A stretch of DNA of 37,992 nucleotides from a virus. The notes under the pieces are model-generated. The model worked only from the letters and a program-made list of their open reading frames with translations. It did not search any database and was not told where the DNA came from. The stretch's first letter is position 1; each line of letters begins with the position of its first letter. The stretch lies in IMG/VR virus record IMGVR_UViG_3300048930_001142; one strand, given 5' to 3'. Shown here piece after piece: positions 15,230-37,992 of this stretch. The position numbers were made by a program, and so were the translations under genes.

Positions 15230-15487
15230 TTAAAACCTCACGAGGACTTGCCGGGCAGGCGGCAAGTCGCCTCGCTTAAGCCTCTCCTCAAGCCGGGCGA
15301 TCTCTTTTTGGTAGTAGTCTTTGGCCTTGAGAAGCTCTGGAAGCGGGATCTTGTCGAGGCGGCGCCGTCCGAGGTTGGTCTCGATCTCAAAAGACGAGAC
15401 GTCCTTGCCGACGCGGCCAGCGAGTGTCGAGTCGATGGCGCGCGAGATTTCGCGTGCGCGCTCGAGCGCAGCTTTGACCTCTTCCAC
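15230..15487 (-). CDS. Lambda gpW-like head-tail joining protein
   Basis: 85 aa between the large terminase and the portal, the conserved gpW position. Confidence 0.65.
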   Translation of the reverse strand: MEEVKAALERAREISRAIDSTLAGRVGKDVSSFEIETNLGRRRLDKIPLPELLKAKDYYQKEIARLEERLKRGDLPPARQVLVRF

Positions 15488-17331
15488 TAGTTTCTCCAGG
15501 CGTTCACAAAGCCGACGCTGTCTCTTCGCTTCTTGATGAGGAGTCTTTTTTTCTCGCTTGCCTTGCCGTGGCTGTCTCTAAGGCGCTCCATCCTTTGCGT
15601 GATCTCGCGAAAGAGCGGATTGAGGATCACGGCGGCCGCGTGCGCGTAGACGGCCGTGTCGAGAGCTTCGTTGCGGCGGTGCCGCGGCAGCTCCCAGACC
15701 TTGACGGGGTGGCCATTTTGGTAAGTGATCTTCACGCGTTCTGAGGTAAGCTGTTTATAGTAATCAGCAGAAAGCGCCATGGGGAAATGTATGTAGCCGG
15801 GGCCGGGCTCTGTGAGCTTGAGCCTCTGGTAGAGAAGCGCCTTCCCCTCGTCGACGCCCAAGGGATAAAGCACCACCTCGCGCCCATCCGAGGGGCTTTT
15901 GCGTCTACTCGGCGCACCGACCACGGGCCTTCCCGTGCCGCGCACGCCCTTTACGGCAAAGACCCTCTGGCCGGTCTTGCCGCGCACGTAGTCGTAGACG
16001 ATCTTGGTGTTGTCGCCCGAGTCGACGGCCGTTGCCACGACCCGGACGGGAAAGCCCCACTCGTGGCGAAACTCCCTAGTGCGAAGCTCGTCGAGAAGAG
16101 CCCACGGCGCCTCTGTGGCGACGTCTCCCCAAAGAACGTAGTAGCCGATGACCCAGGCCTCCCAGTCCTCGCCGTAGCCGATGACTTGGGCCTCAAGGCG
16201 GTCGTCTTGGACGTCGACTCCAAGACAAAGCACCCTGACGCCACGTGGCACCTCGGCCTCGTAGTCTTCGGCTCTCGTGGAAAGGAGACTCGAGGCCACC
16301 GTGTCGACCTCGTCCTCGTAGGGCTCGCCAAGAAAGGTGTTGTAGAAGACCTTCATTTTCTCGGTGTCGCGCTGGGCTGCCATGTACTCGTCGGCCGTCT
16401 CGCCAAAAGAGACCCACGGCGAGTAGAGGGCCGAGACGTGAAAGCCGACACTTGCCCCCCGCTTGTCGGGGTCAAGACAGCGCCAGCGACCGGCCTTGAG
16501 GGCTGCCAATTTGTGGCCGTCGTAGATGGCGCCGGCACACTCCTGGCAGCGGTAGAAGGCTGTCTCAGTCCTTTCCTCCTCCCAGACGACCCCCTCCCAT
16601 TCAAGGACGATAAAGGCGCGGCAGTGGGGACAGGGCAGCTCAAAGACGTGCCGCCTTGAGGCCTCGTAGAGGCGGTTTATCTTGGAGGTCCGGCGCTCTC
16701 TAGAGGGCGAGCTGGTCGCGATAAATTTTCGGTTGTAGAAGGTCGACGAGCGCTTTCGCGCCAGATCGAGCGGGCTTCCTTCCGAGCCAGCCGAGTCGGG
16801 CATCCGGTCGACCTCGTCGGCGTAGACGATGCGAATCGGCCGTGACGAGAGCGAGGCCGGCGAGTTGGCGCCGGCCAGCGAGATGTGACCGCCGGCAAAG
16901 CGCTTGTGCAGCATGGTGTTGGAGCTGTCCTTGGCCTTGGGGTCTTCGACAATCTTGGCCAGGACCTTGGAGTCGCGAATCATGGTGGCCAGGCGGTCTT
17001 TGCTCCAGATCTCGGCTAGCTCAAGCGTTGGCAGAAGCACCAGCTGGGGGCTTGGCTCCTGGTGGGTGTAGTAGCCGATGCAGTTGAGGAGAAACTCGGT
17101 CTTTCCGACCTGGGCTGCGGCCTTGACGATGACCTCTTTGACGTCTGGCGCCTTGACGGCCTCCATGATGCCTCGAAGATATGGCACGCTGTCGGTGCGC
17201 CAGCGGCCAGGCGAGGCCGAGGCCTCGCCCGAGAGGACACGGTAGCGCTCGGCCCAGTCCGAGATGGAAAGCCGAGGCGGCGGGGCAAAGGCTTCGCGAA
17301 AGACTTCGAGCAGCTCTCTTTCTGCCCTCAA
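15487..17331 (-). CDS. terL: Terminase large subunit (lambda GpA family)
   Basis: 614 aa. ISDWAERYRVLSGEASASPGRWRTDSVPYLRGIMEA...AAQVGKTEFLLN matches the GpA N-terminal ATPase region. Confidence 0.9.
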   Translation of the reverse strand: MRAERELLEVFREAFAPPPRLSISDWAERYRVLSGEASASPGRWRTDSVPYLRGIMEAVKAPDVKEVIVKAAAQVGKTEFLLNCIGYYTHQEPSPQLVLLPTLELAEIWSKDRLATMIRDSKVLAKIVEDPKAKDSSNTMLHKRFAGGHISLAGANSPASLSSRPIRIVYADEVDRMPDSAGSEGSPLDLARKRSSTFYNRKFIATSSPSRERRTSKINRLYEASRRHVFELPCPHCRAFIVLEWEGVVWEEERTETAFYRCQECAGAIYDGHKLAALKAGRWRCLDPDKRGASVGFHVSALYSPWVSFGETADEYMAAQRDTEKMKVFYNTFLGEPYEDEVDTVASSLLSTRAEDYEAEVPRGVRVLCLGVDVQDDRLEAQVIGYGEDWEAWVIGYYVLWGDVATEAPWALLDELRTREFRHEWGFPVRVVATAVDSGDNTKIVYDYVRGKTGQRVFAVKGVRGTGRPVVGAPSRRKSPSDGREVVLYPLGVDEGKALLYQRLKLTEPGPGYIHFPMALSADYYKQLTSERVKITYQNGHPVKVWELPRHRRNEALDTAVYAHAAAVILNPLFREITQRMERLRDSHGKASEKKRLLIKKRRDSVGFVNAWRN

Positions 17332-17669
17332 ATGACCTCTCCCCTGGAAAGCTCGGCCAAGGCGTCGTCGATGGCCCTTGTGAGCACTTCTTCGACCTCG
17401 GCTGGCTCGCCAAGCAGAGCCAGGGTGGGCGCTTTAGAGGCTGGGATGGCAAGAAGCCTGGCCTTGGCCGCCATGACGGCCGCCTTCCAGAGCTTTTTCA
17501 CCTCGTCGACTGGCACGAGCTGACGCTCTTTCTCGAGCAGCTCCAGCTCGAGCTTGTCGGCTCTCACCTTGGTGAGCCGCACCTGCTCGGCCTCGAGGGC
17601 TCCTCCTTTGTGTTCTTCCCTCAAAGCCTCACTCCGGTGGAGGTTTGCAGACGGACAGTCGGCAGCCAC
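17328..17669 (-). CDS. Terminase small subunit-like protein (coiled-coil part only; no HTH seen)
   Basis: 113-aa ORF coupled to terL. LELELLEKERQLVPVDEVKKLW resembles the Nu1-type oligomerisation region. Its 5' 49 nt overlap the recombinase ORF, so the start is uncertain. Confidence 0.5.
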   Translation of the reverse strand: MAADCPSANLHRSEALREEHKGGALEAEQVRLTKVRADKLELELLEKERQLVPVDEVKKLWKAAVMAAKARLLAIPASKAPTLALLGEPAEVEEVLTRAIDDALAELSRGEVI

Positions 17670-19213
17670 CTGGTGTCGACCTCGGCGTCGTCGATTTTAA
17701 GATAGGCGTAGGTCTGGTCGACGGCGCTGTGATTCATTTTGAGCTGAATACTACGGATATCGGCGCCATCTTCGTAGGCAAACTTGGCCCAAGAGACTCT
17801 GAGACTGTGGGCTCTTCTTTGGCTTCCCCCGGCAGTGATCGGGGTGATGCCGGCCTTGTCAAAAAGGCTACTGATGCGGCGACAGCTGGTCGAGATGCCA
17901 AGCGGCTTGTCTTTGACCTCGAGAGAGGCCGAGAAAAGGTAGGCCTCGGGAGGAGCGTCGTGAAAGTAGCGCTCGATATAGGCCTCGACCATGTCGGCGA
18001 CTGGCTTTGAGACGCCGACGGTGTAGCGATCGGCGTTGGCCTTGCTTTCAATGGCGAGGCTTTTGCCGCGGCGTGTTTCGAGGAGGTCGCACTTTCTGAG
18101 CGACAAAAGACCGCTGTGGCGCATGCCGACGCCGGCCAGGAGGTAGACGGCCAAAAGATCGCGGTGGGCCTTCCAGCGCTGGGGGATGTTCAAAGGCGGC
18201 GTCGACTTCAAGATCTCCTGGGCCGTGGCGATGACCTTGGCGGTTTCGTCTCGGGTGAGCGCCTCGGTCTGGACCTTTCTCTCGACCTTTGGAACCTTGA
18301 GCCTTTGAAGCGGGTTTTTGGGGATCTCCTCTTCGCCAGCGCAAAACCCCAGGAAGGCTTTGACGGCCGACAGCTCGCTGGCGATGGTGGCCGGCTGCTT
18401 GCCAAGCTCACTTCGGTACTGCTTGAAGGCCACGACGCTTTCCAGCGTGAACTTGTCGAGACGGTCGACGGGGCTTTCGAGCACGCTGGCCGCAAAGCTT
18501 CGGTAGGTGCCCAGGTGCTTGCGGTAGAGCTTGGCGGTGGCGGGCTTTCTTTGGCCGGAAAGAAAGATCTCGAGAAGCTGCTCGAGCCTCTCTTCGGGCG
18601 TCTCTGCGAGGTTTCCAAGCCTGGCAAGGCTTGGGGCCGGCTCGGACTTGTCGCCCTCCACCTTGCGCGCAAGCGGTCGCTGGTGGCCGCGCGTGTAGCG
18701 ATGGGCAGCGCTCACCGACACGCCGTACTTTTTTGCCAAGGCCTCCAGCGTTGCGCCCTCTCGCCTCTCGCGCTGCATGTCGGAGATAAAGCTTTTGCCA
18801 TGGGCCTCGGCGATGCTGGGAAGCCGTCGGGGGCGGAGCTTTTTCTGATGAGCGTTCATGACCCCGGTGAGAAACGAGCTGGTCATCTGCTCTTTGGGAT
18901 CAAGCAGCAGGTTTTCATCAAGCAGCCGCACGTAGAGGCCGTCTTTCCTGCGCTTCTCGTAGAGGTCGACGAAGAGGTCGATGTCGAGCCTGGGGTGGTT
19001 CAGGCCATCGATCACCACCACACTGCGGTCTTCGGCCGTCAGCATCAGCGAGCGAAAGGAGGTATTCTTTTCGAGTACCACCCGCACCTTGTTCATGCGC
19101 TCGTCCAGGTGCGGCAGCATCTTGCCGGGATGCCGCCTCTCCTCCTGCGCCCGGTAGATCCGCTTCATCTCCTCCAGTGAGCCACCAAGCGACACGTAGT
19201 AGATCGTCAGCAC
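17621..19213 (-). CDS. Recombinase fusion: resolvase-like N-terminal domain + HTH + complete tyrosine recombinase; start revised to GTG at 19213
   Basis: AAGGAG lies 8 nt upstream of the GTG. N-terminal motifs: IYYVS, VVVIDGLNHPRLDIDLF, GLYVRLLDENL, HTH ATLEALAKKYGVSVSAAHRY. C-terminal motifs: SAM-like core-binding domain, GMRHSGLLSLRKCDL, AHSLRVSWA (HxxR), DQTYAYL (Tyr). Confidence 0.75.
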   Translation of the reverse strand: MLTIYYVSLGGSLEEMKRIYRAQEERRHPGKMLPHLDERMNKVRVVLEKNTSFRSLMLTAEDRSVVVIDGLNHPRLDIDLFVDLYEKRRKDGLYVRLLDENLLLDPKEQMTSSFLTGVMNAHQKKLRPRRLPSIAEAHGKSFISDMQRERREGATLEALAKKYGVSVSAAHRYTRGHQRPLARKVEGDKSEPAPSLARLGNLAETPEERLEQLLEIFLSGQRKPATAKLYRKHLGTYRSFAASVLESPVDRLDKFTLESVVAFKQYRSELGKQPATIASELSAVKAFLGFCAGEEEIPKNPLQRLKVPKVERKVQTEALTRDETAKVIATAQEILKSTPPLNIPQRWKAHRDLLAVYLLAGVGMRHSGLLSLRKCDLLETRRGKSLAIESKANADRYTVGVSKPVADMVEAYIERYFHDAPPEAYLFSASLEVKDKPLGISTSCRRISSLFDKAGITPITAGGSQRRAHSLRVSWAKFAYEDGADIRSIQLKMNHSAVDQTYAYLKIDDAEVDTRWLPTVRLQTSTGVRL

Positions 19214-19689
19214 CCGACCTTGCTCCTTCCCCAGCACCCTTTTGCGAATAAATAGCGCCCGATCCCTACCCCTTTCTTCGTCGTGAGAAGTAGGAGGTAA
19301 GACAGGGTTACTCCGAGGGGCCGGACGCCCGCCGAAGATGAGACGCAAAACCCTTGAGCCACAAGGAGCCCTCGCGCACGGCCATGCATTCTGTCGGGAA
19401 ATGAACCTATGCCGCTAAGATAGCAGACAAAAGACGGCATGTTTACGGCTTTTGCCAAAGCGGCCACAGCTTCCGACACAGTGCGTAGAAAGCGTGCAAA
19501 CGGGTCCTTTCCCACCCCCCTTTTGCGGTGCCGGCGGCGCCGCAGCAGCTCACTAGAGAATGAAAAATTTTGCGGACTTGCGTCCCTGCGCAGGAATTAG
19601 GATGGTTTCACATATATTTTTGCTAGGAAGGGTCGGTTGAGCTAAAGTATATATAAAATAGTGCCGACTAGAGAGAGGAGGCTCACCTG

Positions 19690-19971
19690 GTGGTGAGGGA
19701 GTTTGACGGCTACACCCTCGAGATCTCCCCATGGGTCTTGGAGAAAATCGCAACCGAGCATGGCGTCACAGAAACCGACGTGGAGGAAGCCTACTGCAAC
19801 TCTTCGCCCGCAGACTGGAGGCGGCCTCGCAACCCGCGGCACGACCCGCCCGAAACCTGGCGCATCATCGCGCCAACCATGAGCGACCGGGTGCTGGTCC
19901 TCTTTCTGACCCCCGATCGCAACAGGCGAAAACTCAAACTCAAAACAGCACTGTGGCTCGATGAGCTTTGA
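19690..19971 (+). CDS. BrnT-like (DUF497-like) toxin candidate; GTG start
   Basis: 93 aa. ISPWVLEKIATEHGVTETDVEEAY then RVLVLFLTP...LKLKTA. RBS GAGAGGAGG upstream. Its stop overlaps the start of a BrnA-like gene. Confidence 0.55.
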   Translation: MVREFDGYTLEISPWVLEKIATEHGVTETDVEEAYCNSSPADWRRPRNPRHDPPETWRIIAPTMSDRVLVLFLTPDRNRRKLKLKTALWLDEL

Positions 19972-20380
19972 AAAAAGGAAGCTAACAATGCCCTCCAACT
20001 ACCCCATCGATCCAAGCACCAAGGCTGAGAGAGAGGCCGACCTTAAAGAGGCCCAAAAACTCGAAGAAGACTTTCGAGCCGGCCGTCAAAGCGACTGGGT
20101 GGCCGCCCAAGACGACGAGCTCTCTGAGATCCACGAGATCGACCGGCAGGTCAAAGAAAACCTCGCCAAGCGTCACGGCGGCGGCCGGCCCAAAAGCGAC
20201 GAGCCCCTGGCGCCCGTCTATATGAAGTGGCCAGAGTCGCTGCTTGCCAACGCCAAGGAAGAGGCCAAGCGCCTCAACATCGGCTACCAGAGCTTTATCA
20301 AGATGGCCGTCACCGAGTACATCCGCCTAAGGCGCGCCAAGGAGCGCGACGCCGCAGGAGCTGCCCATGACGAGCAATGA
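19961..20380 (+). CDS. BrnA-like (CopG/RHH-type) antitoxin candidate
   Basis: 139 aa. The C-terminus VYMKWPESLLANAKEEAKRLNIGYQSFIKMAVTEYI matches the BrnA pattern (RLP.S.L..LK..A....PYQSLIK). Confidence 0.6.
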   Translation: MSFEKRKLTMPSNYPIDPSTKAEREADLKEAQKLEEDFRAGRQSDWVAAQDDELSEIHEIDRQVKENLAKRHGGGRPKSDEPLAPVYMKWPESLLANAKEEAKRLNIGYQSFIKMAVTEYIRLRRAKERDAAGAAHDEQ

Positions 20381-20654
20381 GAAGACTGCCCCACAAGCCG
20401 CCACCACCTGGTGGTACTCCCCAAGCGCCAGCGAGCCGCCGAAGGACCTTGCCGGCTGGCTCGAGCGCATCCGCGCTCACGTCACCTGGGCGCGCGGGAC
20501 CATGACGCCGCGCGAAATGCCAAGCGCCTGTGCATCGCTCGAGAAGGCGGCAGCCGCCCTCGAGCAGCTCGGCAAGGTGCTGGAGACCCGTGGTCTTGGC
20601 GTGACGCCGCTTGACGTCTCCGAGGGACACTAGAACGAATCAAGCGGCCGGCGA
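20355..20654 (+). repeat. Direct repeat copy 1 (about 300 bp, contains the 88-aa gene)
   Basis: By-eye alignment with 21905-22212 runs from caggagct upstream of the ATG through caagcggcc(g/a)gcga after the stop, with scattered substitutions. Confidence 0.8.
20367..20633 (+). CDS. Hypothetical 88-aa protein, copy 1 of a duplicated gene; translationally coupled to the BrnA-like gene
   Basis: Its ATG overlaps the BrnA-like 3' end. A near-identical paralog lies at 21917-22183. No family recognised. Confidence 0.65.
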   Translation: MTSNEKTAPQAATTWWYSPSASEPPKDLAGWLERIRAHVTWARGTMTPREMPSACASLEKAAAALEQLGKVLETRGLGVTPLDVSEGH

Positions 20655-21856: not shown

Positions 21857-21904
21857 GTGTTGTCGCAATCCGTGATCGAACAAGACCCAAGGAGGCCTAC
21901 GACA

Positions 21905-22212
21905 CAGGAGCTAGCCATGACAAACAATGAGAAACCCAGCCCTCAAGCCGCCGCCACCTGGTGGTATTCCCCTAGCGCCAGCGAACCGCCGACCGACCTT
22001 GCCGGCTGGCTCGAGCGCATCCGCGCTCACGTCACCTGGGCACGCGGCGCCATGACCCCGCGCGAAATGCCAAGCGCCTGTGCATCGCTCGAAAAGGCGG
22101 CAGCCGCCCTCGAGCAGCTCGGCAAGCTGCTGGAGAGCCGCGGTCTAGGCGTGACGCCGCTTGACGTCTCCGAGGGACGCTAGAGCAAAGCAAGCGGTCA
22201 AGCGGCCAGCGA
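21905..22212 (+). repeat. Direct repeat copy 2 (about 300 bp, contains the second 88-aa gene)
   Basis: See 20355-20654. Confidence 0.8.
21917..22183 (+). CDS. Hypothetical 88-aa protein, copy 2 of the duplicated gene (start at internal ATG, MTNNEK...)
   Basis: MTNNEKPSPQAAATWWYSPSASEPPTDLAGWLERIRAHVTWARG... is nearly identical to the 20367-20633 product. AGGAG lies upstream. Confidence 0.65.
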   Translation: MTNNEKPSPQAAATWWYSPSASEPPTDLAGWLERIRAHVTWARGAMTPREMPSACASLEKAAAALEQLGKLLESRGLGVTPLDVSEGR

Positions 22213-23822: not shown

Positions 23823-26800
23823 ATGCCCAAGCACCACCAACTCTCCTCGGCTCTGACCGGGCTGTGGCTCGCCCTGGCGCCGCTGGCCGCCAGCGCCGGC
23901 CCATTCCCGCTCTCCTACGGTGGCCGCCTGACAGGTCCGACCGGCAGCCCGCTTGCGGGGCCCGTCGATCTTGCCGTCCATTTCTTCCGAAGTGAGACCG
24001 GCGGCAGTCCGCTGCTGGGCGAGCCAGTCGTCGTCCCCGCAGTGACCCTCCAGGAGGGGGTCTTTCAGCTGACGCTCGATCTCCCGGTCGAGGATTACAG
24101 CGCGATCTTCCCCTCGGCTGAGACGGCCGCCTATATCGAGATCACCGATCAAACCAACGCGCGCACCTATCCTCGGCAGCGCTTTGCAGTCGTGCCGCTG
24201 GCAGCCCGGGTGCCGGTCGACGGCAGCACCGTGACGTTCGACGAAAGCGGCCGCCTGACCGCCACGCTCCCGACTGCTGGCGCGACTACACCGGGCGTGA
24301 TCAAGGCGACCAATGCCTTTGTCGAAGTCGACGCTGGTGGCGACATCACCGCCATCAAACAGGCGCAGAGCTTCTCCGGCACCCTCAGCGGCGACGTCAC
24401 CGGCACGCAGAATGCCACGGTGGTCACCAAGATCCGCGGCAAGGCCTTCACCGACACTCTCGATGCCAGCAACGACCAAAAGGTCATCAAGTGGGACAAC
24501 GCCACCAGTAGCTTCAAGCTCATGAACGACGTTGTCAGCGGCGGCCTGAGCACCGGCGACGTCACGTCGACCATCATCGCCGACGGGACCATCGTAAATG
24601 CCGACATCAGCGCTTCGGCCAACATCGCCGCCAGCAAGATCGGCACGGGAGCAGTCGACAACACGCACTTCAATTATTTGGCGGGCCTGACCTCGGACCC
24701 CCAAGCCCAACTCAACGCCAAGCAGGCGGCCATTACTGCGGCCACCGTCCTTCCGGTCGGCTCGCTCACCAGCGACCTTCAAGCGGGTGTGACGCTTGAC
24801 GGCTATGGCAGCGGTGCCGGGCAAACCGGCGAGCTGCGCTTTGAGGAGCGTGACGGGCTCGAGAATAACTACGTCGGCCTCAAGGCGCCCGACGCGGTTG
24901 CAAGCAATCAAATCTGGACTCTGCCTGCCGCAGACGGCACGGCCGGCCAGCTGCTGTCGACCAATGGCTCGGGTGTGCTGACGTGGGCGACCGCGACCAC
25001 GGCCAGCTCGTCCGACACGTTCATCAACAAGACGATCAACGCCGACAACAACACGATCAGCAACATCGAGGACTCGGAGATCAAGGCGGGTGCCAATATC
25101 GCCCGCGCCAAACTGGCGTCCGGCACAGCCTCCCACGTGCTCGTCAACGACGGCAGCGGCGTGATGAGCTCCGAGGCGCAGCTTGCGATCTCCCGCGGCG
25201 GCACCGGGGCCGCCAGCGCCAGTGCGGCGCTCACCAACTTGCTGCCGTCGCAGACCGGCAACTCCGGCAAGGTGCTCTCGACCGACGGCACGGCGGCCTC
25301 GTGGACTGCTCTCAGCACCACCAACTGGAACACCGCCTACGACGACCGCCTGAAATGGGACGGCGGCGCCACCGGTCTCGTGGCCGCCACCGGCCGCGCC
25401 AGCCTCGGCCTCGGCACGGTCGCCACGCTGGATGTCGGCACCGCCGCCGATCAAGTGGTGCAGCTTGACGCTACCGCCAAGCTGCCAGCCGTCGACGGTT
25501 CGGCCGTCTCAAACCTCACTCCCGCCAACCTCAGCGCGGCCGTGGCCGTCGCCAAGGGCGGCACCGGCGCGACGACCGCCGACGGAGCGCTAACGAGTCT
25601 TCTGCCGGCCCAGACCGGCAACTCCGGCAAGGTGCTCTCGACCAACGGCAGCACGACGTCGTGGCTTGCTCTCAGCGCCACCGACTGGAACACCGCCTAC
25701 AGTGATCGGCTGCAGTGGGACGGTGGCGCCAGCGGCCTCAATGCGACGACCGCCCGCACGAGCCTCGGCCTCGGCACAGCTGCCACGCTGAACGTCGGCA
25801 CTGCCGCGAGCAATGTCGTGCAGCTAGACGGCACCGCCAAGCTGCCGGCTGTCGACGGTTCCCAGCTCACAGGCGTCGTCACGACGGCTGCGGTCGACAG
25901 CGCCGGCGCCGTGATGAACGGCGACTTCGGCTCAGACGGCCTAATGGCACGCACCGCGGCAGGGACCTACAGCGTCGTCGCCGACAACTCTGCAAACTGG
26001 AACACCGCCTACACAGACCGCATGAAATGGGACGGCGGCAGCACCGGCCTGGTCGCCGCCACGGCGCGCACCAGCCTCGGCCTCGGCACGGCTGCCACAC
26101 TGGATGTCGGTACCACCGCGAGCAAAGTGGTCCAACTCGACGGCAGTGCCCGGCTGCCGGCCGTCGACGGCTCGCAGCTCACCAATCTGCCGACAGCAAG
26201 CCTCACCTGCCCCACGGGCTATATCCTGGTGCCGGGCAATGCGAGCTTCACCAACGCAAGCTTCTGCGTCATGAAGTACGAGGCCAAAAAGGACGGTACC
26301 ACCGGCCAAGCAGTGTCGACCTCTGCGGGCACCCCCTGGGTCAACGTCTCCTGGTATGAGGCGCAAAGCGCCTGCAAGCGGGTCGGCGGCCACCTCGTCA
26401 ACGAAGGCGAGTGGATGACCATCGCCCGCAACATCGAGGCCACCGCCATTAACGATATCGACTCGGCCGCCGGTATTCAGCTTGCCACTGGCCACTCTGA
26501 TAACTCTCCGGCCAGCGCCTTGGCAGCAGTGGCCGACCCCTCGCTCTCGAGCTGCACGCTCACGTTGGAACTATCGAATGCCAGCAACAACTCCTGCGCC
26601 CTGCGTGGCCCCGGCACCAATGCTGGCAACAGCACCGACTATGGCTACTACGGCACGGGCAACGGCTACAGCACAGCCTATTCGGCTGGCGCCGCCAACA
26701 AATCGCAAATGCGCACCCACGTCCTCAGCAACGGCAATGTCATCTGGGACCTCGCCGGCAACGTCTGGGAATGGACGGATGCACAGTGCGACACGACCAG

Positions 26801-27065
26801 CTGGTACACCACCGGATGGGTCGAGTGGAACAACGCCAACGTGACCGACTGGGAAAAGCTGGTAGCCGGCCCGAGTGGCTCGCTGACCTCCTCTAACGGG
26901 GCCGGTCAGTATTATGGGTGCACCGCGAGTGGCAATGCCCTGCTCCGCGGCGCCTACTGGAACGATGGCTCGTACGCCGGCGTGTTCGCCGCCTATTTGG
27001 TCAATGGGCCGTCGGACGTCTACAGCGTCGTGGGCTTCCGCTGCGCCTTCTCCAATGCCCACTAA
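23823..27065 (+). CDS. DGR target protein: signal-peptide-like N-terminus, fibre-like repeats, C-terminal FGE-sulfatase/C-type-lectin-fold domain carrying the VR
   Basis: 1080 aa. N-terminus MPKHHQLSSALTGLWLALAPLAASAGP. Repeated NWNTAY.DR.KWDGG..GL.A.TAR.SLGLGTAATL.VGT modules. C-terminus GEWMTIARN...GNVWEWTD...LRGAYWNDGSYAG...GFRCAF. Confidence 0.9.
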   Translation: MPKHHQLSSALTGLWLALAPLAASAGPFPLSYGGRLTGPTGSPLAGPVDLAVHFFRSETGGSPLLGEPVVVPAVTLQEGVFQLTLDLPVEDYSAIFPSAETAAYIEITDQTNARTYPRQRFAVVPLAARVPVDGSTVTFDESGRLTATLPTAGATTPGVIKATNAFVEVDAGGDITAIKQAQSFSGTLSGDVTGTQNATVVTKIRGKAFTDTLDASNDQKVIKWDNATSSFKLMNDVVSGGLSTGDVTSTIIADGTIVNADISASANIAASKIGTGAVDNTHFNYLAGLTSDPQAQLNAKQAAITAATVLPVGSLTSDLQAGVTLDGYGSGAGQTGELRFEERDGLENNYVGLKAPDAVASNQIWTLPAADGTAGQLLSTNGSGVLTWATATTASSSDTFINKTINADNNTISNIEDSEIKAGANIARAKLASGTASHVLVNDGSGVMSSEAQLAISRGGTGAASASAALTNLLPSQTGNSGKVLSTDGTAASWTALSTTNWNTAYDDRLKWDGGATGLVAATGRASLGLGTVATLDVGTAADQVVQLDATAKLPAVDGSAVSNLTPANLSAAVAVAKGGTGATTADGALTSLLPAQTGNSGKVLSTNGSTTSWLALSATDWNTAYSDRLQWDGGASGLNATTARTSLGLGTAATLNVGTAASNVVQLDGTAKLPAVDGSQLTGVVTTAAVDSAGAVMNGDFGSDGLMARTAAGTYSVVADNSANWNTAYTDRMKWDGGSTGLVAATARTSLGLGTAATLDVGTTASKVVQLDGSARLPAVDGSQLTNLPTASLTCPTGYILVPGNASFTNASFCVMKYEAKKDGTTGQAVSTSAGTPWVNVSWYEAQSACKRVGGHLVNEGEWMTIARNIEATAINDIDSAAGIQLATGHSDNSPASALAAVADPSLSSCTLTLELSNASNNSCALRGPGTNAGNSTDYGYYGTGNGYSTAYSAGAANKSQMRTHVLSNGNVIWDLAGNVWEWTDAQCDTTSWYTTGWVEWNNANVTDWEKLVAGPSGSLTSSNGAGQYYGCTASGNALLRGAYWNDGSYAGVFAAYLVNGPSDVYSVVGFRCAFSNAH
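25226..26180 (+). repeat. Intragenic repeat modules of the target gene (two copies of about 360 nt plus a partial third; approximate limits)
   Basis: Repeated DNA/protein blocks ALT.LLP.QTGNSGKVLST.G...SW.ALS...WNTAY.DRL.WDGG... . The aactggaacaccgcctac-type cores lie near 25323, 25683 and 25997. Confidence 0.75.
26936..27049 (+). other. DGR variable repeat (VR)
   Basis: 114 bp matching TR 29408-29521, with 11 mismatches that all fall at TR adenines. Confidence 0.92.
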
Positions 27066-27104
27066 GTCCTTGGTTTCTTGGACCTTGGTCCTTGGTGTTG
27101 GGGT

Positions 27105-27123
27105 CTGGGGGCGTAGCCCCCAG
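27105..27123 (+). promoter_or_regulatory. GC-rich hairpin downstream of VR/IMH (CTGGGGGC-GTA-GCCCCCAG), candidate DGR target-recognition stem-loop
   Basis: Perfect 8-bp inverted repeat with a 3-nt loop, 55 nt after the end of VR homology. Confidence 0.6.
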
Positions 27124-27130
27124 CGGCTCC

Positions 27131-27165
27131 ATTTCGGAAATTTCCGAAATTTCGGAAATCATGCC
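27131..27165. repeat. Palindromic TTCSGAAA repeat block 1 (9-bp period AAATTTCSG)
   Basis: atttcggaaatttccgaaatttcggaaatcatgcc. Contains overlapping 16-bp perfect palindromes. The 33-nt core is identical to the one in block 2. Confidence 0.9.
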
Positions 27166-27227
27166 GAAACAGCACGTTAACGTAACATGCTAATCTAATT
27201 GACTATGCGTGTTTTATGATCAGCCGT

Positions 27228-27295
27228 CATTTCCGAAACTTCCGAAATGTCACTTCGGCAACTTCGGAAATTTCCGAAATTTCGGAAATCATGCC
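27228..27295. repeat. Palindromic TTCSGAAA repeat block 2 (upstream of the HTH gene)
   Basis: catttccgaaacttccgaaatgtcacttcggcaacttcggaaatttccgaaatttcggaaatcatgcc. Confidence 0.9.
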
Positions 27296-27366
27296 AGTCC
27301 GGAATGTTTCCCCTTTTGAGCGAGCATGCCCCCTGCTAGGGTACTCTGCACTCCTAATCAAGGATC

Positions 27367-28056
27367 ATGTCGCCCGCGATGCCACGCCGCAGCCAGCCCC
27401 ACTCCCAGCTTGAGGTAAGCGTCGATACTGCCGCGAAATCTCTCGGTGTTTCTGAGCGCATGGTTCTGAACTACATCAAGGCCAGACAGATCAAAGCGCT
27501 GCGTGTCGGCAAGCGCTGGTTTGTCGACCTCGCCTCGCTGGAGGCCTTTCGACAGGCCAGCGGTCTCACCCAAAGGGACCCTCAGGCCATTTCCGAAACT
27601 TCGGAAATTTCCGAAATTTCGGAAACGCTTCCGAAGTCGCCTGCGACCACAGGCAGCGAAGGCCCGCCGCGCCCAAGGCGAAGCTCCTCCGGGAAGAACC
27701 TCGATGGGCTAGCCTGCTACCGGCTGTGCCTGGAGGCTTTCCGGATGCCGATGTGGGCAGACGCCGACAAGCTCCGCTTCGGCCATCGACTGCGTGATCT
27801 GCAGGGCGCGATTCTCGAGCAGCTCGGCTCGGGCTTCTATTCGTATGGCGCCGAGAAGCGCGCCTACTATGACCGTTCCCGGGGACTGATCGGCGCGGCG
27901 CTGGCGCTCGTCTACAGCGATCCCGATGCGAGGCTGCGTTGGGCCAGCGAAGTCGCCTTTCTGGAGGGTGATGTGCTGCCCGCGTTTGCGTCGTTGATCA
28001 AGAAAATCGAGCGCGGTCAGGATCGCGAAGGCCGGGGACGACGCCATGAGCGCTAG
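27367..28056 (+). CDS. DGR-associated HTH protein: excisionase/MerR-type HTH N-terminus + helical C-terminal domain (possibly four-helix-bundle/Avd-like)
   Basis: 229 aa. HTH: VSVDTAAKSLGVSERMVLNYIKARQIKALRVGKRWFVDLASLEAF. The C-terminal ~110 aa are helical (ACYRLCLEAFRMP...LRDLQGAILEQLGSG...). Lies between the target and avd; its stop overlaps the avd start. Confidence 0.7.
   Translation: MSPAMPRRSQPHSQLEVSVDTAAKSLGVSERMVLNYIKARQIKALRVGKRWFVDLASLEAFRQASGLTQRDPQAISETSEISEISETLPKSPATTGSEGPPRPRRSSSGKNLDGLACYRLCLEAFRMPMWADADKLRFGHRLRDLQGAILEQLGSGFYSYGAEKRAYYDRSRGLIGAALALVYSDPDARLRWASEVAFLEGDVLPAFASLIKKIERGQDREGRGRRHER
27588..27636. repeat. Palindromic TTCSGAAA repeat block 3 (inside the HTH gene, translated as ISETSEISEISET)
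   Basis: catttccgaaacttcggaaatttccgaaatttcggaaacgcttccgaag. Confidence 0.9.
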
Positions 28057-28423
28057 AAGCCCCAAGATCCTCGCCGACAGCTACCAATTGACCGTCATGG
28101 TGTTTGGCAGAACGCGCAGCTTTCCCAAACACTACCGCCCGACACTTGGTCGCCGCCTGGAGGACCGCGCGATCGACCTGACGTCTGCCGTCCGCGTCGC
28201 AAGCCTTGCCAAAGGCGGCGGTAAAGACTCGCGGCGGACTGCCTCCTTGGAGAGCGCCTCGGAGCTTCTGGACGAGATCCGGATTCTGCTTCAGCTCGCG
28301 CATGACATGCAGATCATTCCGACTGCCGGCTATGCCGAGCTGAGCGAGCTGACCGCCGAGGTCGGTCGACAAATCGGTGGCTTTGGAAAGTTCGAGGCGG
28401 CTGCCCGTGACCACACTCCTTGA
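28046..28423 (+). CDS. avd: DGR accessory variability determinant (Avd)
   Basis: 125 aa, basic and helical. The C-terminus LTAEVGRQIGGF parallels Bordetella bAvd LIAEVGRILGSW. Lies immediately upstream of, and overlapping, the RT. Confidence 0.8.
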   Translation: MSARSPKILADSYQLTVMVFGRTRSFPKHYRPTLGRRLEDRAIDLTSAVRVASLAKGGGKDSRRTASLESASELLDEIRILLQLAHDMQIIPTAGYAELSELTAEVGRQIGGFGKFEAAARDHTP

Positions 28424-29354
28424 CGAGGTGACGGCGTTTGGGAACCTTGCGCGGGCGTTTCAGCTCTGCGCACGCGGCAAGCGTGCCTCGACCGGCTACC
28501 AGCGCGCCATGTTTGCGCACGGCGAGAAGCTCGTCGCCATGCGCGGCAGGATCCTATCAGGCCAGTATCGCTGGGGACGCTACCGGGAGCTCTTGGTGAG
28601 GGACCCCAAGTCGCGTCGCGTATTGGCGGCTCCCTTTATGGACCGCGTCGTCCATACAGCCATCCACGAGATCATCGAGCCGATCCTCGATCCCCTGATA
28701 CCGGAGAGCGTGTATGCCTGCCGTCATGGCAAAGGCAACCGGAAGGCCGCGACCGATCTTCTGGAGGTGCTTTGCGAGCATGGCAAAGACCGCTTCGTCA
28801 TCAAGCTCGACGTCGCGCAATACTTTGCCTCGATCCGGCATGACGTGCTGCTCGCCAAGCTTTTCGAGGCGCTGCCAGACCGGAGTCTCGAGCCTCTTCT
28901 GGCCTCGCTCCTGCGAAGCCATGCCGAGTATGCCTCTCGAGGGTACGGCATCCCGATCGGAAACCTGACGTCCCAGGTGTTTGCCAACTTCTATCTCGTC
29001 TCCGCCGACCGTGTCGCCTCCGAGCTGCTCGGAGGCGGCTTCTACTTCCGCTACATGGACGACATGGTTCTCGGGGGCCGCAATAAGTCGGTGGTCCTCA
29101 ACGCGGCCGATGCTGTGACCCAGCACGTCGAAAGCGACCTGAGGCTTTCGATTCCCTACTTCAAGCGGATGCCGCTCGGTAACGCGCCCGTGCCGTTTCT
29201 AGGATACGTGCTCGATCACAGCGGCTATAGAATTCTAAGCCGCAACAAGAGGAGGTTTATCAAACGAATGCGACGCCTGGAGCGTTCGGGAGCCCGCCCG
29301 AGCCGGATGGCGCAGAGCGAGTTGTCGTTTCGTTCTTTTGAGAATTTGTTATGA
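28377..29354 (+). CDS. DGR reverse transcriptase (GTG start at 28377, or in-frame GTG at 28407)
   Basis: 325 aa. LDVAQYFASIRHDVL, GIPIGNLTSQVFANFYL (DGR-type motif) and FYFRYMDDMVLGG (YxDD). Confidence 0.92.
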   Translation: MALESSRRLPVTTLLDEVTAFGNLARAFQLCARGKRASTGYQRAMFAHGEKLVAMRGRILSGQYRWGRYRELLVRDPKSRRVLAAPFMDRVVHTAIHEIIEPILDPLIPESVYACRHGKGNRKAATDLLEVLCEHGKDRFVIKLDVAQYFASIRHDVLLAKLFEALPDRSLEPLLASLLRSHAEYASRGYGIPIGNLTSQVFANFYLVSADRVASELLGGGFYFRYMDDMVLGGRNKSVVLNAADAVTQHVESDLRLSIPYFKRMPLGNAPVPFLGYVLDHSGYRILSRNKRRFIKRMRRLERSGARPSRMAQSELSFRSFENLL

Positions 29355-29407
29355 AAAAGGTGTCGGGCTCAGAATGGTCGCGCCTGCCGTTCAGCGTTGT
29401 CCGAAGG

Positions 29408-29521
29408 TGCCCTGCTCCGCGGCGCCAACTGGAACAATGGCACGAACGCCGGCGTGTTCGCCGCCAATTTGAACAATGGGCCGTCGAACGTCAACAGCAA
29501 CGTGGGCTTCCGCTGCGCCTT
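29408..29521 (+). other. DGR template repeat (TR), adenine-rich AAY codons
   Basis: 114 bp homologous to the VR. 22 adenines, 11 of them substituted in the VR. Starts 54 nt after the RT stop. Confidence 0.92.
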
Positions 29522-29654
29522 GTCGTTCGCCCGGCGGCCGTGAGACTTGGGAGTTTGCTGTCTGCGTGAGGGAAGTCTTTTCAGCGATGAGAAGACCACG
29601 CTGAGCCTTCTGATATTTGTCCCAAGGCACTTCGAGCCTGGCACCTGTGGCTGA

Positions 29655-30888: not shown

Positions 30889-31821
30889 TCAACCTAGGTA
30901 TTTTTCCTCGAGCCAAGACACTGCTGCGGTGAGCTTGACACTTTGAGCCCACTCCATGAGGTCGGCTAGCGCGGCCGTCTCATCTGTTGCAACGCGGCGC
31001 GGAAGCACCTCATCACAGCGAAAATAGGCATTTCCCCCGAGAATCTGTCGGCACTGGTAGTCGGCAATCCCGACGTTGGCGTCGATCATTAGGCTTGTCA
31101 TCGGCTGAGCCCATTGGGCAAAGCCCCAGTCCAGGGTCTTGCCGGAGATCCACTGCGGGCTCCTCCCGGTTGAGAGCGAGAAGACGCGCAGCGAGAGGAG
31201 ATCCTGACGGCCGACGTCGGGGTTGATGGCGAGCGCCACGGCCGCCATCGCCGGGTTGTTGCACCCGACCCCGCCGTCGACATAGCCCTGGTAGCTGGGA
31301 AAGTAGGTCGGCGCCGCGCTCGATCGCAAGGCTACGTCGACTGTCCGTTCCGCGCCGTCTGAATCGGCTCCGGGGTAGTTGTGAAAGAACTTCATTTTCC
31401 ACGTCCGCGGCGAGCCCTCGTTGTCGAGGTCGAAGCTTGGAACGAGCACGCGCCGCTTCAAGCCCGAGAGCAGCCCTTCGCCGAAGATCCGCTCAAGGAC
31501 CCGCTTAAGGTAGCCCTGGTCATAGTCAGCGCCGATGACCTTGCCCATGTCCTGGAGGTTGTCGCACCAGGAGTCGTCAAAGACCTTGGCGCCATGCTTT
31601 TCGAAGAACGTGACAAGCTCGCTTGCCCCCATCCCCGAGGCCAGCGCCATGGCGCTGATCGCCCCGATCGAGGTTCCCGCAAAAAGACGCACCGAGGGCA
31701 AGAACGCCGGCACCGCTTCCGCCAGCCGAGCCAGGATCACAGCTTGATAGGCTCCACGGATACCGCCGCCATCGAGCGCCAAGATTCGATAGGGTCGCAT
31801 CCTCGGCTCAACACGCATCAA
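30889..31821 (-). CDS. Patatin-like phospholipase
   Basis: 310 aa. ILALDGGGIRG (oxyanion loop), GTSIGA (GxSxG nucleophile), VDGGVGCNNP (catalytic Asp). Confidence 0.88.
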   Translation of the reverse strand: MMRVEPRMRPYRILALDGGGIRGAYQAVILARLAEAVPAFLPSVRLFAGTSIGAISAMALASGMGASELVTFFEKHGAKVFDDSWCDNLQDMGKVIGADYDQGYLKRVLERIFGEGLLSGLKRRVLVPSFDLDNEGSPRTWKMKFFHNYPGADSDGAERTVDVALRSSAAPTYFPSYQGYVDGGVGCNNPAMAAVALAINPDVGRQDLLSLRVFSLSTGRSPQWISGKTLDWGFAQWAQPMTSLMIDANVGIADYQCRQILGGNAYFRCDEVLPRRVATDETAALADLMEWAQSVKLTAAVSWLEEKYLG

Positions 31822-35523: not shown

Positions 35524-35786
35524 GGCATCTCCTTGCCCATTAAGGTGATGTCGCGTCACTCCCCTACTCGGGGTTCGACAACCGACTTGCAGTGTTGGAA
35601 CCACTGCAGGTCGGACTCTAATTTTGAAAAATCGCACCCTCGAACGGGCAGCGCACATTGGTGCGCCATCCAACAGCTCACCTTTGAGCTACAAAGCTTG
35701 GATTCCAAACAAAGATCTCCGAACGCAATAGGCATACGCTTGCCCTGCGGGGAGCATAGGTCTTGAAAAATCTTTTCGAAACTCTC

Positions 35787-35890
35787 GGTCCACAGAGACT
35801 GGGTCCGCACAGACTGGGTCCGCACAGACTGGGTCCGCACAGACTGGGTCCACACAGTCTGGGTCCACACAGACTGGGTCCACACAGACT
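35787..35890 (-). repeat. Inverted-orientation array of the 15-bp repeat: 6 full units + 1 degenerate, three units with a G variant
   Basis: gggtccgcacagact x3, gggtccacacagtct, gggtccacacagact x2. This is the reverse complement of the unit at the window ends. It lies 23 nt downstream of the ParB-like stop. Confidence 0.95.
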
Positions 35891-35912
35891 GTGCTCAGCA
35901 TGACAGCGCAAG

Positions 35913-36491
35913 TCATAGCAGCCCAGGTGCAGTAGGTTTCGCTATAATTTCATCTGGTTCAGCCACACGATAAGCCCATGTTTGGCGCAAGCCGGCGTCG
36001 TATTCTCGGACAACCGAAATAGCTCCAACGTCAATCAGCCTTTTGATGAGTGGAGCAATCGCGGTGCTTCTCAAATCGAACAGCTTTGCATAGGAGCTAT
36101 GAGGCAGCTCTATCAGGCCAGTATTCGGATCACGCATCTCGCGAATAGCGAAATAATAGCCGGCATCGCCTCGAAGCAAACGAGTAATTACCGTTATCTC
36201 CCGGGCACGAGCTGATAAACTGCCATCTTCTTGCGAAGAAGCTCGCGTATTCTCCGTTTCTTGGTCCTTACGTGCGCTGTCTGCCCTTATCGCATCGGCT
36301 ACATGATGATGAACATCCGATGTTTGCTCTTCGACTCTTTCGCGAGCATTAGCGGCCACAGTGAGATGCTCGTCAGGACGACGAGCTTGCCCCTGACGAT
36401 CTATCTTGCGAAGCTTCTGCGGATGACTTCCAATGCGCCCCTGCTTCGCCAGCTTTTTTAGCATTTCCTGAGCATCAGGCATTTCTAACAC
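35913..36491 (-). CDS. Small ParB-like / centromere-binding adaptor candidate (winged-helix-like C-terminus)
   Basis: 192 aa. Overlaps the parA stop by 17 nt. Charged N-terminal half. C-terminus: YFAIREMRDP...SYAKLFDLRSTAIAPLIKRLIDVGAISVVREY. The assignment rests mainly on position. Confidence 0.5.
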   Translation of the reverse strand: MLEMPDAQEMLKKLAKQGRIGSHPQKLRKIDRQGQARRPDEHLTVAANARERVEEQTSDVHHHVADAIRADSARKDQETENTRASSQEDGSLSARAREITVITRLLRGDAGYYFAIREMRDPNTGLIELPHSSYAKLFDLRSTAIAPLIKRLIDVGAISVVREYDAGLRQTWAYRVAEPDEIIAKPTAPGLL

Positions 36492-37692
36492 CTCGCTTCT
36501 CTACGGCAACTCTCCGAGTCGCTGGCTTTTTGCGAAGAGTAACTGCATCGAGGCCGATAATCGCCTTAACAAGCTTATCGAAGTCATCGGCAACACCATT
36601 GCGTCTTCCGCAATCGTACAGACCACGACCAAAATGAATCGCGTTCTTAAGTTCAGCCGAAGTGCGGATGTAGGTGCTATACAGCTTATCCGGATAATCC
36701 TGATAAAGTCGCGACATGTAATGCACGCTTGTGACTTCGCGTGCATCGAAACGCCCAAATATGATTCTTTCCTTCATCGTTTGACGAATCGATGGCCACT
36801 GATTTTTTAAGCGTTCGAGCTCACCAAGTGTCTGCGTAAGCCCTGATATGCACAGCTTGTCTGGATAAACCGGCAAAAGAACAGTGTTCGCAAAGCACGC
36901 AATTGCGGCGTTCGTCGAGGAAAGAGCAGGTGCACAGTCGAAAATGATGTAGTCATACTGTTGCAGAACTTCCGCAAATTTTAGGCGAAACGCCCGCTCC
37001 ACATTTATAGCGCTACGCTGGAGCGTAATCTCAAGATTGCTATTGAGAAGAGTGCTTGGGATGAGATGCAGATTCGGCGTAACCTTGACGATGAGGTCAC
37101 TGACTGTGACAGCAAGCTCTCCACGCTTCTGCTGATCGAACAAATCAGCAAGGATAGCTGTATCCTCATCGACCTCGATTCCATATTGTTCTAGTTCGAA
37201 CGCCGTAGTTAAGTTTGACTGCGGGTCCGCATCGACGACGAGTACTTTCCCGCCGAAAGCAGAGATTCGCGTCGATAACACGTAGCTCGTCGTAGTCTTA
37301 GCTGCTCCCCCCTTGGTAATTTGAACCGCAATTACATGCGCGGTATGCTCTGGCTGATCCAGAGGGAACAGAAAACCTCGGTCAGCAAAAATCGCTCGCA
37401 CATCGTCTGGATGAAGAGTGCGGGCAGCGCCGCTCTTGCTCGTAGAGCGCTCGAAATGCCGAGCCGACGCTTTTTTTAGAATATCGCTTAGTGCCGCTGT
37501 CGATACGCCGATCGTATCGCGCAAGTCTGTTGAGCGGAGCCCAAACGGATTTCTGCAAGCACCACCAGCAAAATCGACGTCTGCCTTCTGGGCTGACTCC
37601 CCTCCTTGCCTCTGCTCACCTTGATCGTCAGCCGCCCCACTTGGGTTGTTATGGTCCTTGCGATCAAGTCGCATTCTTCGCTGCGTCACCAT
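36475..37692 (-). CDS. parA: ParA/SopA-type partition ATPase (long, type Ia-like with N-terminal extension)
   Basis: 405 aa. Deviant Walker A: VIAVQITKGGAAKTTTSYVLS. VLVVDADPQSNLT. Size and N-terminal region as in P1 ParA / F SopA. Confidence 0.88.
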   Translation of the reverse strand: MVTQRRMRLDRKDHNNPSGAADDQGEQRQGGESAQKADVDFAGGACRNPFGLRSTDLRDTIGVSTAALSDILKKASARHFERSTSKSGAARTLHPDDVRAIFADRGFLFPLDQPEHTAHVIAVQITKGGAAKTTTSYVLSTRISAFGGKVLVVDADPQSNLTTAFELEQYGIEVDEDTAILADLFDQQKRGELAVTVSDLIVKVTPNLHLIPSTLLNSNLEITLQRSAINVERAFRLKFAEVLQQYDYIIFDCAPALSSTNAAIACFANTVLLPVYPDKLCISGLTQTLGELERLKNQWPSIRQTMKERIIFGRFDAREVTSVHYMSRLYQDYPDKLYSTYIRTSAELKNAIHFGRGLYDCGRRNGVADDFDKLVKAIIGLDAVTLRKKPATRRVAVEKRGVRNA

Positions 37693-37850
37693 GGAAAGCC
37701 CTCAGAAGCCTCGAGTTGATGCTTTGCAGACATTATGATTAAAAGTGTCAAACACGGTCTGTTCGACATGGTAGCAAAGATTAGCCTGGCACAGCAATAT
37801 TTCTGTGCGAATTAGGCATACTCCGGCATCCACGGCTTCGTTCTCTTAAC

Positions 37851-37992
37851 CCCAGTCTGTGTGGACCCAGTCTGTGTGGACCCAGTCTGTGTGGACCCAG
37901 TCTGTGTGGACCCAGTCTGTGTGGACCCAGTCTGTGTGGACCCAGTCTGTGTGGACCCAGTCTGTGTGGACCCAGTCTGTGTGGACCCAGTC
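37851..37992 (+). repeat. 15-bp tandem array (9 full units + 7 nt) running off the window end; upstream of parA
   Basis: cccagtctgtgtgga repeated exactly from 37851 to the last base. Confidence 0.95.

Follow-up and report, generated by a model that had tools for sequence, protein, structure and literature searches.

A resolvase-like module without its catalytic residues, fused to a Xer-like tyrosine recombinase in a family of putative phage-plasmids and plasmids

Serine and tyrosine site-specific recombinases are unrelated solutions to one problem and are normally alternatives to each other. A number of tyrosine recombinase systems serve replicon or transposon resolution. Cre, a simple recombinase made of a core-binding and a catalytic domain (CB+CAT), is carried by the phage-plasmid P1, which has ParA-type partition, and serves to resolve plasmid dimers and to cyclise the DNA; its site, loxP, adjoins the gene and consists of two inverted arms with a short asymmetric centre between them, and the Cre/loxP module lies within a few kilobases of the P1 packaging genes. 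XerC/XerD and archaeal XerA resolve dimers of chromosomes and plasmids; in the case of XerC/XerD acting at cer and psi, the accessory DNA-binding proteins PepA, ArgR and ArcA impose intramolecular selectivity. The TnpI/IRS system of Tn4430 and the TnpS-TnpT/rst system of Tn4651 carry out cointegrate resolution with a tyrosine recombinase, using a core inverted repeat and flanking accessory motifs; TnpI uses the same domains for both kinds of motif, and TnpT is a separate protein. In this study, we describe a recombinase gene on the minus strand of the virus record IMGVR_UViG_3300048930_001142 of IMG/VR (37,992 nucleotides, analysed as a whole and called the window hereafter). Its product joins a module with the body of a small serine recombinase, stripped of its catalytic residues, to an active-looking tyrosine recombinase, and a conserved DNA element, the candidate site of the enzyme, lies upstream of the gene.

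The locus resembles Cre/loxP in its simple recombinase, in the ParA-type partition of the phage and in the position and design of the site, which in one relative (L044) has a 12-8-12 layout within 26-nucleotide arms. Unlike the family described here, whose function is predicted from sequence, Cre lacks an accessory module at its N-terminus and works without an accessory site, and it shows no sequence similarity to the window recombinase beyond the superfamily. Residues 1-175 have the fold of the Tn3, gamma-delta and Sin resolvases, with the same order of secondary structure, the E-helix, the arm and the C-terminal helix-turn-helix (HTH), and profile homology is detectable over residues 52-177. 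Unlike these resolvases, the window module lacks equivalents of S10, R8, D67, R68 and R71, so that it cannot be a serine recombinase; it also stays below the Pfam gathering threshold and is fused to a second, unrelated recombinase. For residues ~225-512, XerC, XerD and XerA are nearest in both profile and solved-structure comparisons, although, in contrast to XerC/XerD, there is a single recombinase gene here, the putative accessory function resides in the same polypeptide and the scores fall far below those of equivalogs. The concept of TnpI and TnpS-TnpT is as proposed here; to our knowledge, a resolvase-like domain is absent from both. As in the window protein, a flexible linker joins an additional DNA-binding domain to the N-terminus of the heterobivalent integrases (lambda Int, IntSXT, IntCTnDOT) and of the DUF3701 TnpR-type recombinases of Tn4401. 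The additional domains of these enzymes are small beta-sheet/helix folds of clan CL0081, or the helical DUF3701 (PMC8138268), and no CL0081 arm-binding Pfam family matched the window protein at E <= 10. Protelomerases (TelN, TelK, ResT) have a perfectly dyad-symmetric centre and a Tel-type domain, whereas the best profiles for the window protein are of Xer type.

The region 17621-19213 is a single intact gene. The first in-frame TTG of the open reading frame (ORF) listing would give a 575-codon frame (17621..19348, minus strand); the shorter model of 530 amino acids (aa) is the best one because all six full-length homologues (47-80% identity, 529-542 aa) have VLTIYYV or MIIIYYV as N-terminus and because a GGAAGGAG Shine-Dalgarno sequence stands at suitable spacing ahead of the GTG at 19213. 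These are the coordinates at which an earlier, sequence-only reading had placed the gene. All the motifs quoted in that reading were found (IYYVS, VVVIDGLNHPRLDIDLF, GLYVRLLDENL, ATLEALAKKYGVSVSAAHRYTRG, GMRHSG, AHSLRV and QTYAYL), and its proposal of an in-frame fusion of a resolvase-like domain, a resolvase-type HTH and a complete tyrosine recombinase is borne out by profile, fold and homologue evidence. That two genes were merged by a frameshift or an assembly error, a concern raised at the time, has practically no likelihood: more than 30 protein clusters from independent JGI, ENA, Logan and NCBI assemblies have the identical frame and the same fused length, the linker is found in every family member and the AlphaFold model is continuous. 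The architecture itself, a dead resolvase module followed by a tyrosine recombinase, is near-certain.

The origin of the N-terminal module is indicated by both fold and profile searches. AlphaFold predicts the order β1-αA-β2-αB-β3-αD-β4/β5, long helix, arm and three-helix HTH, with a model confidence (pLDDT, predicted local distance difference test) of 77.9 when the module is modelled by itself; in the full-length model it is 86.4 overall and ~90 in the N-terminal domain. In a Foldseek search of the PDB, Tn3, gamma-delta and Sin resolvases supply the 11 top chains (E 1.9e-6 to 2.9e-4, probability 1.0). A hidden Markov model (HMM) of seven close homologues, covering residues 1-179, has Tn3/gamma-delta resolvase sequences as its six best PDB matches (E 0.0015-0.018), in a collinear alignment of residues 58-173 with resolvase residues 53-178, and the HMM search of 1.84 billion representative proteins recovers two true resolvases (P0141 and P0151, with PF00239 at E 1e-35), their library-wide E-values being 6e-4 and 9e-4. 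Aligned by hhalign with three true resolvases, the 24-sequence family alignment reaches 97.9% probability over residues 52-177; residues 1-50 resemble a resolvase by fold only, sequence-level similarity beginning at about residue 51. The gathering threshold of the PF00239 Resolvase family is reached by no single sequence: the window protein has no match at all, one of the seven close homologues has a sub-threshold one (E 0.023), and single-sequence scans of the N-terminus against Pfam, NCBIfam and PHROG gave weak generic HTH matches only. The lack of a significant resolvase-profile hit, by which the sequence-only reading would have been refuted, thus holds for single sequences compared with Pfam, but profile, profile-profile and fold searches all contradict it.

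These searches also bear on a different origin, in which the N-terminal domain would be a flavodoxin-like or receiver-like α/β domain with an HTH of NarL/LuxR type, serving solely as a transcriptional autoregulator of the operon. NarL-type response regulators (VpsT, LiaR, RcsB, FixJ) do form the second tier of Foldseek matches, at E 5e-4 to 1e-2; in addition, the Pfam Resolvase threshold is not passed and the conserved upstream element sits in the promoter/leader region. However, resolvases surpass the response regulators about 100-fold in Foldseek E-value and are specifically picked by the sequence profiles, the hhalign match runs collinear with resolvase over β3-αD-β4/β5-αE-arm-HTH, and the succession of β4/β5 hairpin and long E-like helix corresponds to resolvase topology. 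We therefore regard this origin as very improbable, and a recombination role can in any case coexist with autoregulation.

As for catalysis, both the profile search alignment and hhalign place gamma-delta D67, R68 and R71 opposite N72, H73 and L76, which are variable positions. The equivalent of S10 is S8, the serine of IYYVS, occupied by S, P, E or A in close homologues and mostly by P in the wider family. Across the module, no Ser or Arg column is conserved among 24-32 sequences, the conserved columns being limited to G153 at the HTH turn, L98 and T174. Because the positions of the Ser nucleophile and of the catalytic Arg and Asp residues are replaced and not conserved, the resolvase module is considered a pseudo-enzyme, in agreement with the earlier suspicion that this part is catalytically dead. 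Its best-conserved stretch is the HTH (invariant G153, Y173-T174), the recognition helix foremost, and mean column identity is 68% in the module against 69% in the rest of the protein. Residues 1-175 thus look like a complete small-serine-recombinase body that has lost the nucleophile and the catalytic arginines and kept the arm and the HTH, and the module appears to be maintained under purifying selection as a non-catalytic unit. The representative library also contains a stand-alone degenerate resolvase-like protein (P0098, 274 aa) with two HTH_7 copies and a sub-threshold PF00239 match (E 0.0016); the N-terminal profile finds it (E 6e-5), and it is possibly a relative of the dead module that exists unfused.

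The C-terminal half matches tyrosine-recombinase profiles. PF00589 (Phage_integrase) is found at residues 393-554 (E 5.8e-16, 59.2 bits against a cutoff of 27.1), PHROG integrase families span residues 226-557 (phrog_1 at E 2.9e-32) and the NCBIfam XerC, XerA and XerD profiles align with residues 268-557 at E 1e-22 to 1e-24, without reaching their equivalog cutoffs (XerC 87.3 vs 335, XerD 79.9 vs 330, XerA 85.1 vs 220). The nearest solved structures are archaeal XerA (4a8e, E 1.4e-11 to the catalytic half, and 5hxy), IntI4 and XerD. At the core-binding domain, the window protein scores 20.5 bits with PF02899 (SAM_1), below the cutoff of 22.3; the AlphaFold model has a four-helix bundle there, and relatives pass the SAM_1, SAM_4 and SAM_5 cutoffs. 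In the family alignment (32 members, 18-80% identity), four residues do not vary (R365, K391, R472, H495), and at least 90% of the sequences keep H469 and Y504. Residues ~204-510 are thus predicted to be an active, simple (CB+CAT) Xer-like tyrosine recombinase, and the catalytic residues that the sequence-only reading had recognised in this half belong to a conserved set.

More than 30 homologues from many samples share the whole architecture, at 18-80% identity and nearly all with 513-583 aa. Profile searching added ~25 further clusters, in which the match covers the whole N-terminal profile or the greater part of it, and PF00589 is present in every one of the profile-search clusters scanned against Pfam. 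Existing labels on these proteins are merely 'XerD' or 'tyrosine-type recombinase', the N-terminal module being unannotated; one homologue, from an Oligoflexus metagenome-assembled genome, is annotated 'tyrosine-type recombinase/integrase [Oligoflexus sp.]'. In tblastn searches of 50,697 phage (INPHARED) and 72,556 plasmid (PLSDB) records, no alignment extended to residues below 166, and when the full-length model was compared with BFVD by Foldseek, the matches were ordinary integrases, aligned only with its C-terminal half. In their survey of tyrosine recombinases, Smyshlyaev et al. (2021; PMC8138268) describe N-terminal domains of the arm-binding and DUF3701 kinds and no resolvase-like one, and the word 'resolvase' occurs nowhere in the survey. 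Altogether, we found no family with a resolvase-like and tyrosine recombinase fusion in Pfam, NCBIfam, PHROGs, INPHARED, PLSDB, BFVD or the searched literature, as the sequence-only reading had supposed, and the conserved architecture is apparently undescribed.

The second conserved component of the locus is a cis element with the layout AAATTTTTCATTCTCTAG-N7-TGCGGCGCC-GCC-GGCACCGCA-N11-GGAAAGGACCCG (19501-19570). Its 21-nucleotide core is invariant where the recombinases are only 47-80% identical, and it keeps a constant orientation 280-530 nucleotides upstream of the gene. In distant lineages the sequence of the palindrome differs and the design is kept, namely a GC-rich inverted repeat with a 3-9-nucleotide centre and, ~6-12 nucleotides further on, GGAAGGACCC; across the lineages having this pattern it is located 275-640 nucleotides upstream of the gene. 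The inverted repeat with AAGGACCC occurs also in L044, L035, L046, L051 and L052, and overall in six of the eight independent lineages with enough upstream sequence, whereas ~0.015 occurrences would be expected per locus for the 8-mer alone. We infer that this element is the recombinase's own site. Other readings of it were tried and rejected. A stable RNA hairpin is not supported, as the folding z-scores are ~0 to -2 except in L044 (-9.4) and the mismatches are not of G-U type; Rfam gave no credible match at E <= 1. Promoter readings, for sigma-70 and, by eye, for sigma-54, did not fit, and a protelomerase target was discarded, since the palindromes have centres that are either asymmetric or of odd length (GCC in the window, TCCAGCGC in L044). 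The GGACCC found in the partition iterons of the window is unclustered in relatives and was taken as coincidence.

The surroundings of the gene suggest the kind of replicon on which this pair acts. The window is a whole phage-sized replicon with tail, head and lambda GpA-type packaging genes, an endolysin and a diversity-generating retroelement (DGR). It also carries a 405-aa ParA-like ATPase of type-Ia size (AAA_31 at 5e-34, phrog_164 at 3e-40), bracketed by arrays of the 15-nucleotide iteron CTGTGTGGACCCAGT at 35784-35906 (inverted, downstream of the 192-aa ORF) and at 37791-37989, continuing at 7-205. The arrays are probably the partition centromere, and the presence of one of them at both ends suggests that the contig is a circle broken inside it. 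Terminase, portal, capsid and tail genes thus share one replicon with a ParA-like ATPase, as in phage-plasmids, and the contig has no host flank. The order recombinase-terS-terL-portal-capsid recurs down to ~20-29% identity (L001, L003, L035, L038, L044, L051), and all the phage-type contigs measure 30-39 kb and are devoid of host DNA. In L005-L007 and L045, which are ~18-kb, plasmid-like and rich in toxin-antitoxin genes, with no phage genes, the recombinase lies directly upstream of parA-parB, and in L041 and L052 the homologue is near a ParA gene. The phage-plasmid setting from which the sequence-only reading argued is therefore backed by the size of ParA, the iterons, the missing host flanks and the plasmid homologues upstream of parAB. 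In the window, the ORFs 32468-34486 (672 aa), 34621-35673 (350 aa) and 35913-36491 have no Pfam or PHROG match; the first two, between the lysis and partition genes, are positional candidates for replication of the episome. Two of the plasmid-like circles (L005 9917 and L006 3768) have an identical recombinase (P0007) and backbone and differ fully upstream of -84; the upstream segment of L006, including the cis element, matches lineage L032, and the mosaic junction falls within a shared GATATT. We considered this junction as evidence of a crossover site and set it aside, a single event proving nothing firm.

The same context must be confronted with the most conventional assignment, a phage integrase for which the upstream element would be attP and the dead resolvase module an arm-binding domain steering chromosomal integration and excision. 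The phage setting and the PHROG 'integrase' match at residues 226-557 agree with it, the site adjoins the gene as in many attP-int modules, and an excisionase-like HTH_17 ORF is found at 27367-28056. However, none of ~25 contigs has host flanks, an integrated copy or an attL/attR arrangement; the window carries ParA and iterons, parAB adjoins the gene in relatives, and no tRNA is present in the window. An exact scan of 185,579 species-representative genomes for the 21-nucleotide core as an integration target gave 18 matches, in unrelated GC-rich taxa and with flanks at chance level (~25% identical), besides two further chance matches in viral contigs. Homology to an attB would not explain an invariant AAGGACCC box beside differing palindromes, and the catalytic half is nearest to simple Xer-type recombinases. 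On balance we hold an integrase to be unlikely, though worth keeping in mind. The HTH_17 ORF (229 aa) matches the N-terminal part of terS/excisionase profiles, and ten 9-nucleotide TTTCCGAAA/TTTCGGAAA repeats, which may be the operator sites of a regulator, lie before and inside it (27121-27634).

Because of the phage-plasmid context (ParA, iterons, missing host flanks, parAB-linked homologues), a Cre-like role, as proposed in the sequence-only reading, is the best interpretation, and we lean, with moderate confidence, towards a multimer-resolution system of an episomal phage-plasmid, similar to Cre/loxP, in which the dead resolvase module would be a built-in accessory domain for DNA binding and synapsis. 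The replicon would be a low-copy episome partitioned by ParA, a phage-plasmid in the window and a plain plasmid in some relatives, and the recombinase would have as its substrate the conserved element, which lies 0.3-0.6 kb ahead of the gene. The lineage-specific GC-rich inverted repeat, a core read by the fast-evolving CB and CAT domains, would be where the tyrosine-recombinase domains bind and carry out strand exchange, while the conserved HTH of the dead module would bind the invariant flanking GGAAGGACCC box. The E-helix and the α/β body would add contacts between subunits, helping to assemble or to bias the synapse, and replicon multimers would be converted into monomers, as Cre/loxP does for P1. 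We infer, rather than observe, the assignment of domains to DNA segments, the dimerisation and resolution in preference to integration.

Several observations weigh against multimer resolution. The window has a single copy of the cis element, and neither recombination products nor duplicated sites or multimer junctions were seen. Neither ParB nor a replication initiator was identified by profile in the window, so that it is ParA, the iterons and the missing host flanks that speak for a plasmid lifestyle. The binding of the GGAAGGACCC box by the HTH is a guess. The core scan covered species representatives, among which the host may be absent; the HTH_17 ORF is present, and PHROGs places the C-terminal half with integrases. 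Finally, translational coupling links the recombinase to terS; this is unexpected for plasmid maintenance and could point to a role linked to packaging.

Indeed, the recombinase and its cis element might form a packaging-linked module, making or processing packageable multimers, or marking cos for a terminase in which the small subunit no longer has a DNA-binding domain of its own, with plasmid relatives carrying the module for packaging by a helper phage. The stop codon of the recombinase overlaps the start of terS (the same four-nucleotide overlap is found in L001 and L003), and the conserved order of recombinase, terS, GpA-type terL, portal and capsid would suit such a role. In addition, the window terS matches only positions 78-172 of a 199-position profile, apparently without the usual N-terminal DNA-binding domain, and the GGGAAAGGAC box resembles the P2 cohesive end GGCGAGGCGGGGAAAGCAC (PMC3931495). 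However, the likeness to P2 amounts to ~9 of 11 bases only and the P2 terminase is unrelated; plasmid-type members keep the module with parAB and without a terminase; GpA terminases bring their own nuclease domain; the contig ends lie away from the cis element; and a promoter-like site within the 3' end of the recombinase gene could drive terS separately. We judge a packaging function to be distinctly unlikely, and less probable than an integrase. A more ambitious form of the multimer-resolution reading, which we advance only tentatively and with some doubt, is a self-contained resolution machine in which a fossil serine resolvase acts as a built-in architectural subunit, binding the invariant box and bridging subunits through its E-helix. 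The site-plus-gene cassette would then be portable between cos-packaging phage-plasmids and their companion plasmids, possibly tied to packaging. If this were true, one polypeptide would do the job of the Tn3 res sites II/III, or of PepA/ArgR at cer.

Table 1. Coordinates of the features of the recombinase locus and of related loci
Feature	Position	Strand	Basis or remarks
Recombinase gene	17621..19213	-	530 aa + stop; GTG start; GGAAGGAG ribosome-binding site; full-length homologues P0002-P0007
Resolvase-like α/β domain	residues 1-126, 18836..19213	-	β1-αA-β2-αB-β3-αD-β4/β5 hairpin; AlphaFold, Foldseek, PDB profile search, hhalign
Long αE-like helix	residues 109-126, within 18836..19213	-	AlphaFold secondary structure
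Low-confidence 'arm' and three-helix HTH (140-174)	residues 127-176, 18686..18835	-	AlphaFold, alignments, weak generic HTH Pfam matches
Flexible linker	residues 177-203, 18605..18685	-	pLDDT < 50 at residues 182-195
SAM-like core-binding domain	residues ~204-300, 18314..18604	-	four long helices (AlphaFold), PF02899, XerC/XerD alignment
Tyrosine-recombinase catalytic domain	residues ~320-510, 17684..18256	-	PF00589, invariant columns, XerA 4a8e
Cis element	19494..19572	-	~290-360 nucleotides upstream of start codon; candidate recombination or binding site
A/T box AAATTTTTCATTCTCTAG	19553-19570	-	part of cis element
Imperfect palindrome TGCGGCGCC-GCC-GGCACCGCA	19524-19544	-	part of cis element
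GGAAAGGACCCG box	19501-19512	-	part of cis element
Terminator-like hairpin, then TTTTGCGTCTCATC	19351..19367	-	leader between cis element and gene; kept in phage-type relatives
L044 element	640 nucleotides upstream		26-nucleotide arms, 8-nucleotide centre TCCAGCGC
L035 element	275 nucleotides upstream		
L046 element	303 nucleotides upstream		
L051 element	440 nucleotides upstream		
L052 element	448 nucleotides upstream		
Small terminase subunit terS (98 aa)	17328..17624	-	TTG start overlaps recombinase stop (TTGA)
Lambda GpA-type large terminase	15487..17331	-	next in same operon; GpA_ATPase/GpA_nuclease in relatives
Partition module	35784..37989	-	ParA-like ATPase 36475-37692; 192-aa ORF 35913-36491 downstream; flanking iteron arrays

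Other parts of the window were also annotated. The DGR is complete (23823-29524): its target gene (23823-27065, 1080 aa), which has three internal repeats of ~300 nucleotides (25197-26168), contains the variable repeat at 26936-27052, the template repeat lies at 29408-29524, 11 of the 12 mismatches between the two repeats fall at adenines of the template, and the reverse transcriptase is encoded at 28377-29354 (phrog_1423, E 7.5e-70). A direct duplication of 300 nucleotides (20337-20636 and 21887-22186, 89% identity) lies among small plus-strand ORFs, and a CopG-like antitoxin gene (19961-20380) adjoins this region. A patatin-like phospholipase gene (30889-31821; PF01734, E 2.8e-24), also present in the relative L003, may be accessory or defence-related cargo.

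All together, what is new here is a tyrosine recombinase with a domesticated serine-recombinase module, together with a newly noted conserved site. The family would represent a clear case of one recombinase type domesticated as an accessory domain of the other, and offers a natural system in which to study how accessory DNA binding and synapse architecture set the direction of tyrosine recombination. From a practical point of view, genome engineering could draw on the enzyme and its candidate site of ~80 bp as a compact pair that is possibly directional. The gene may also serve as a marker for an uncultured lineage of ParA-bearing phage-plasmids with lambda-type terminases and of the plasmids related to them.

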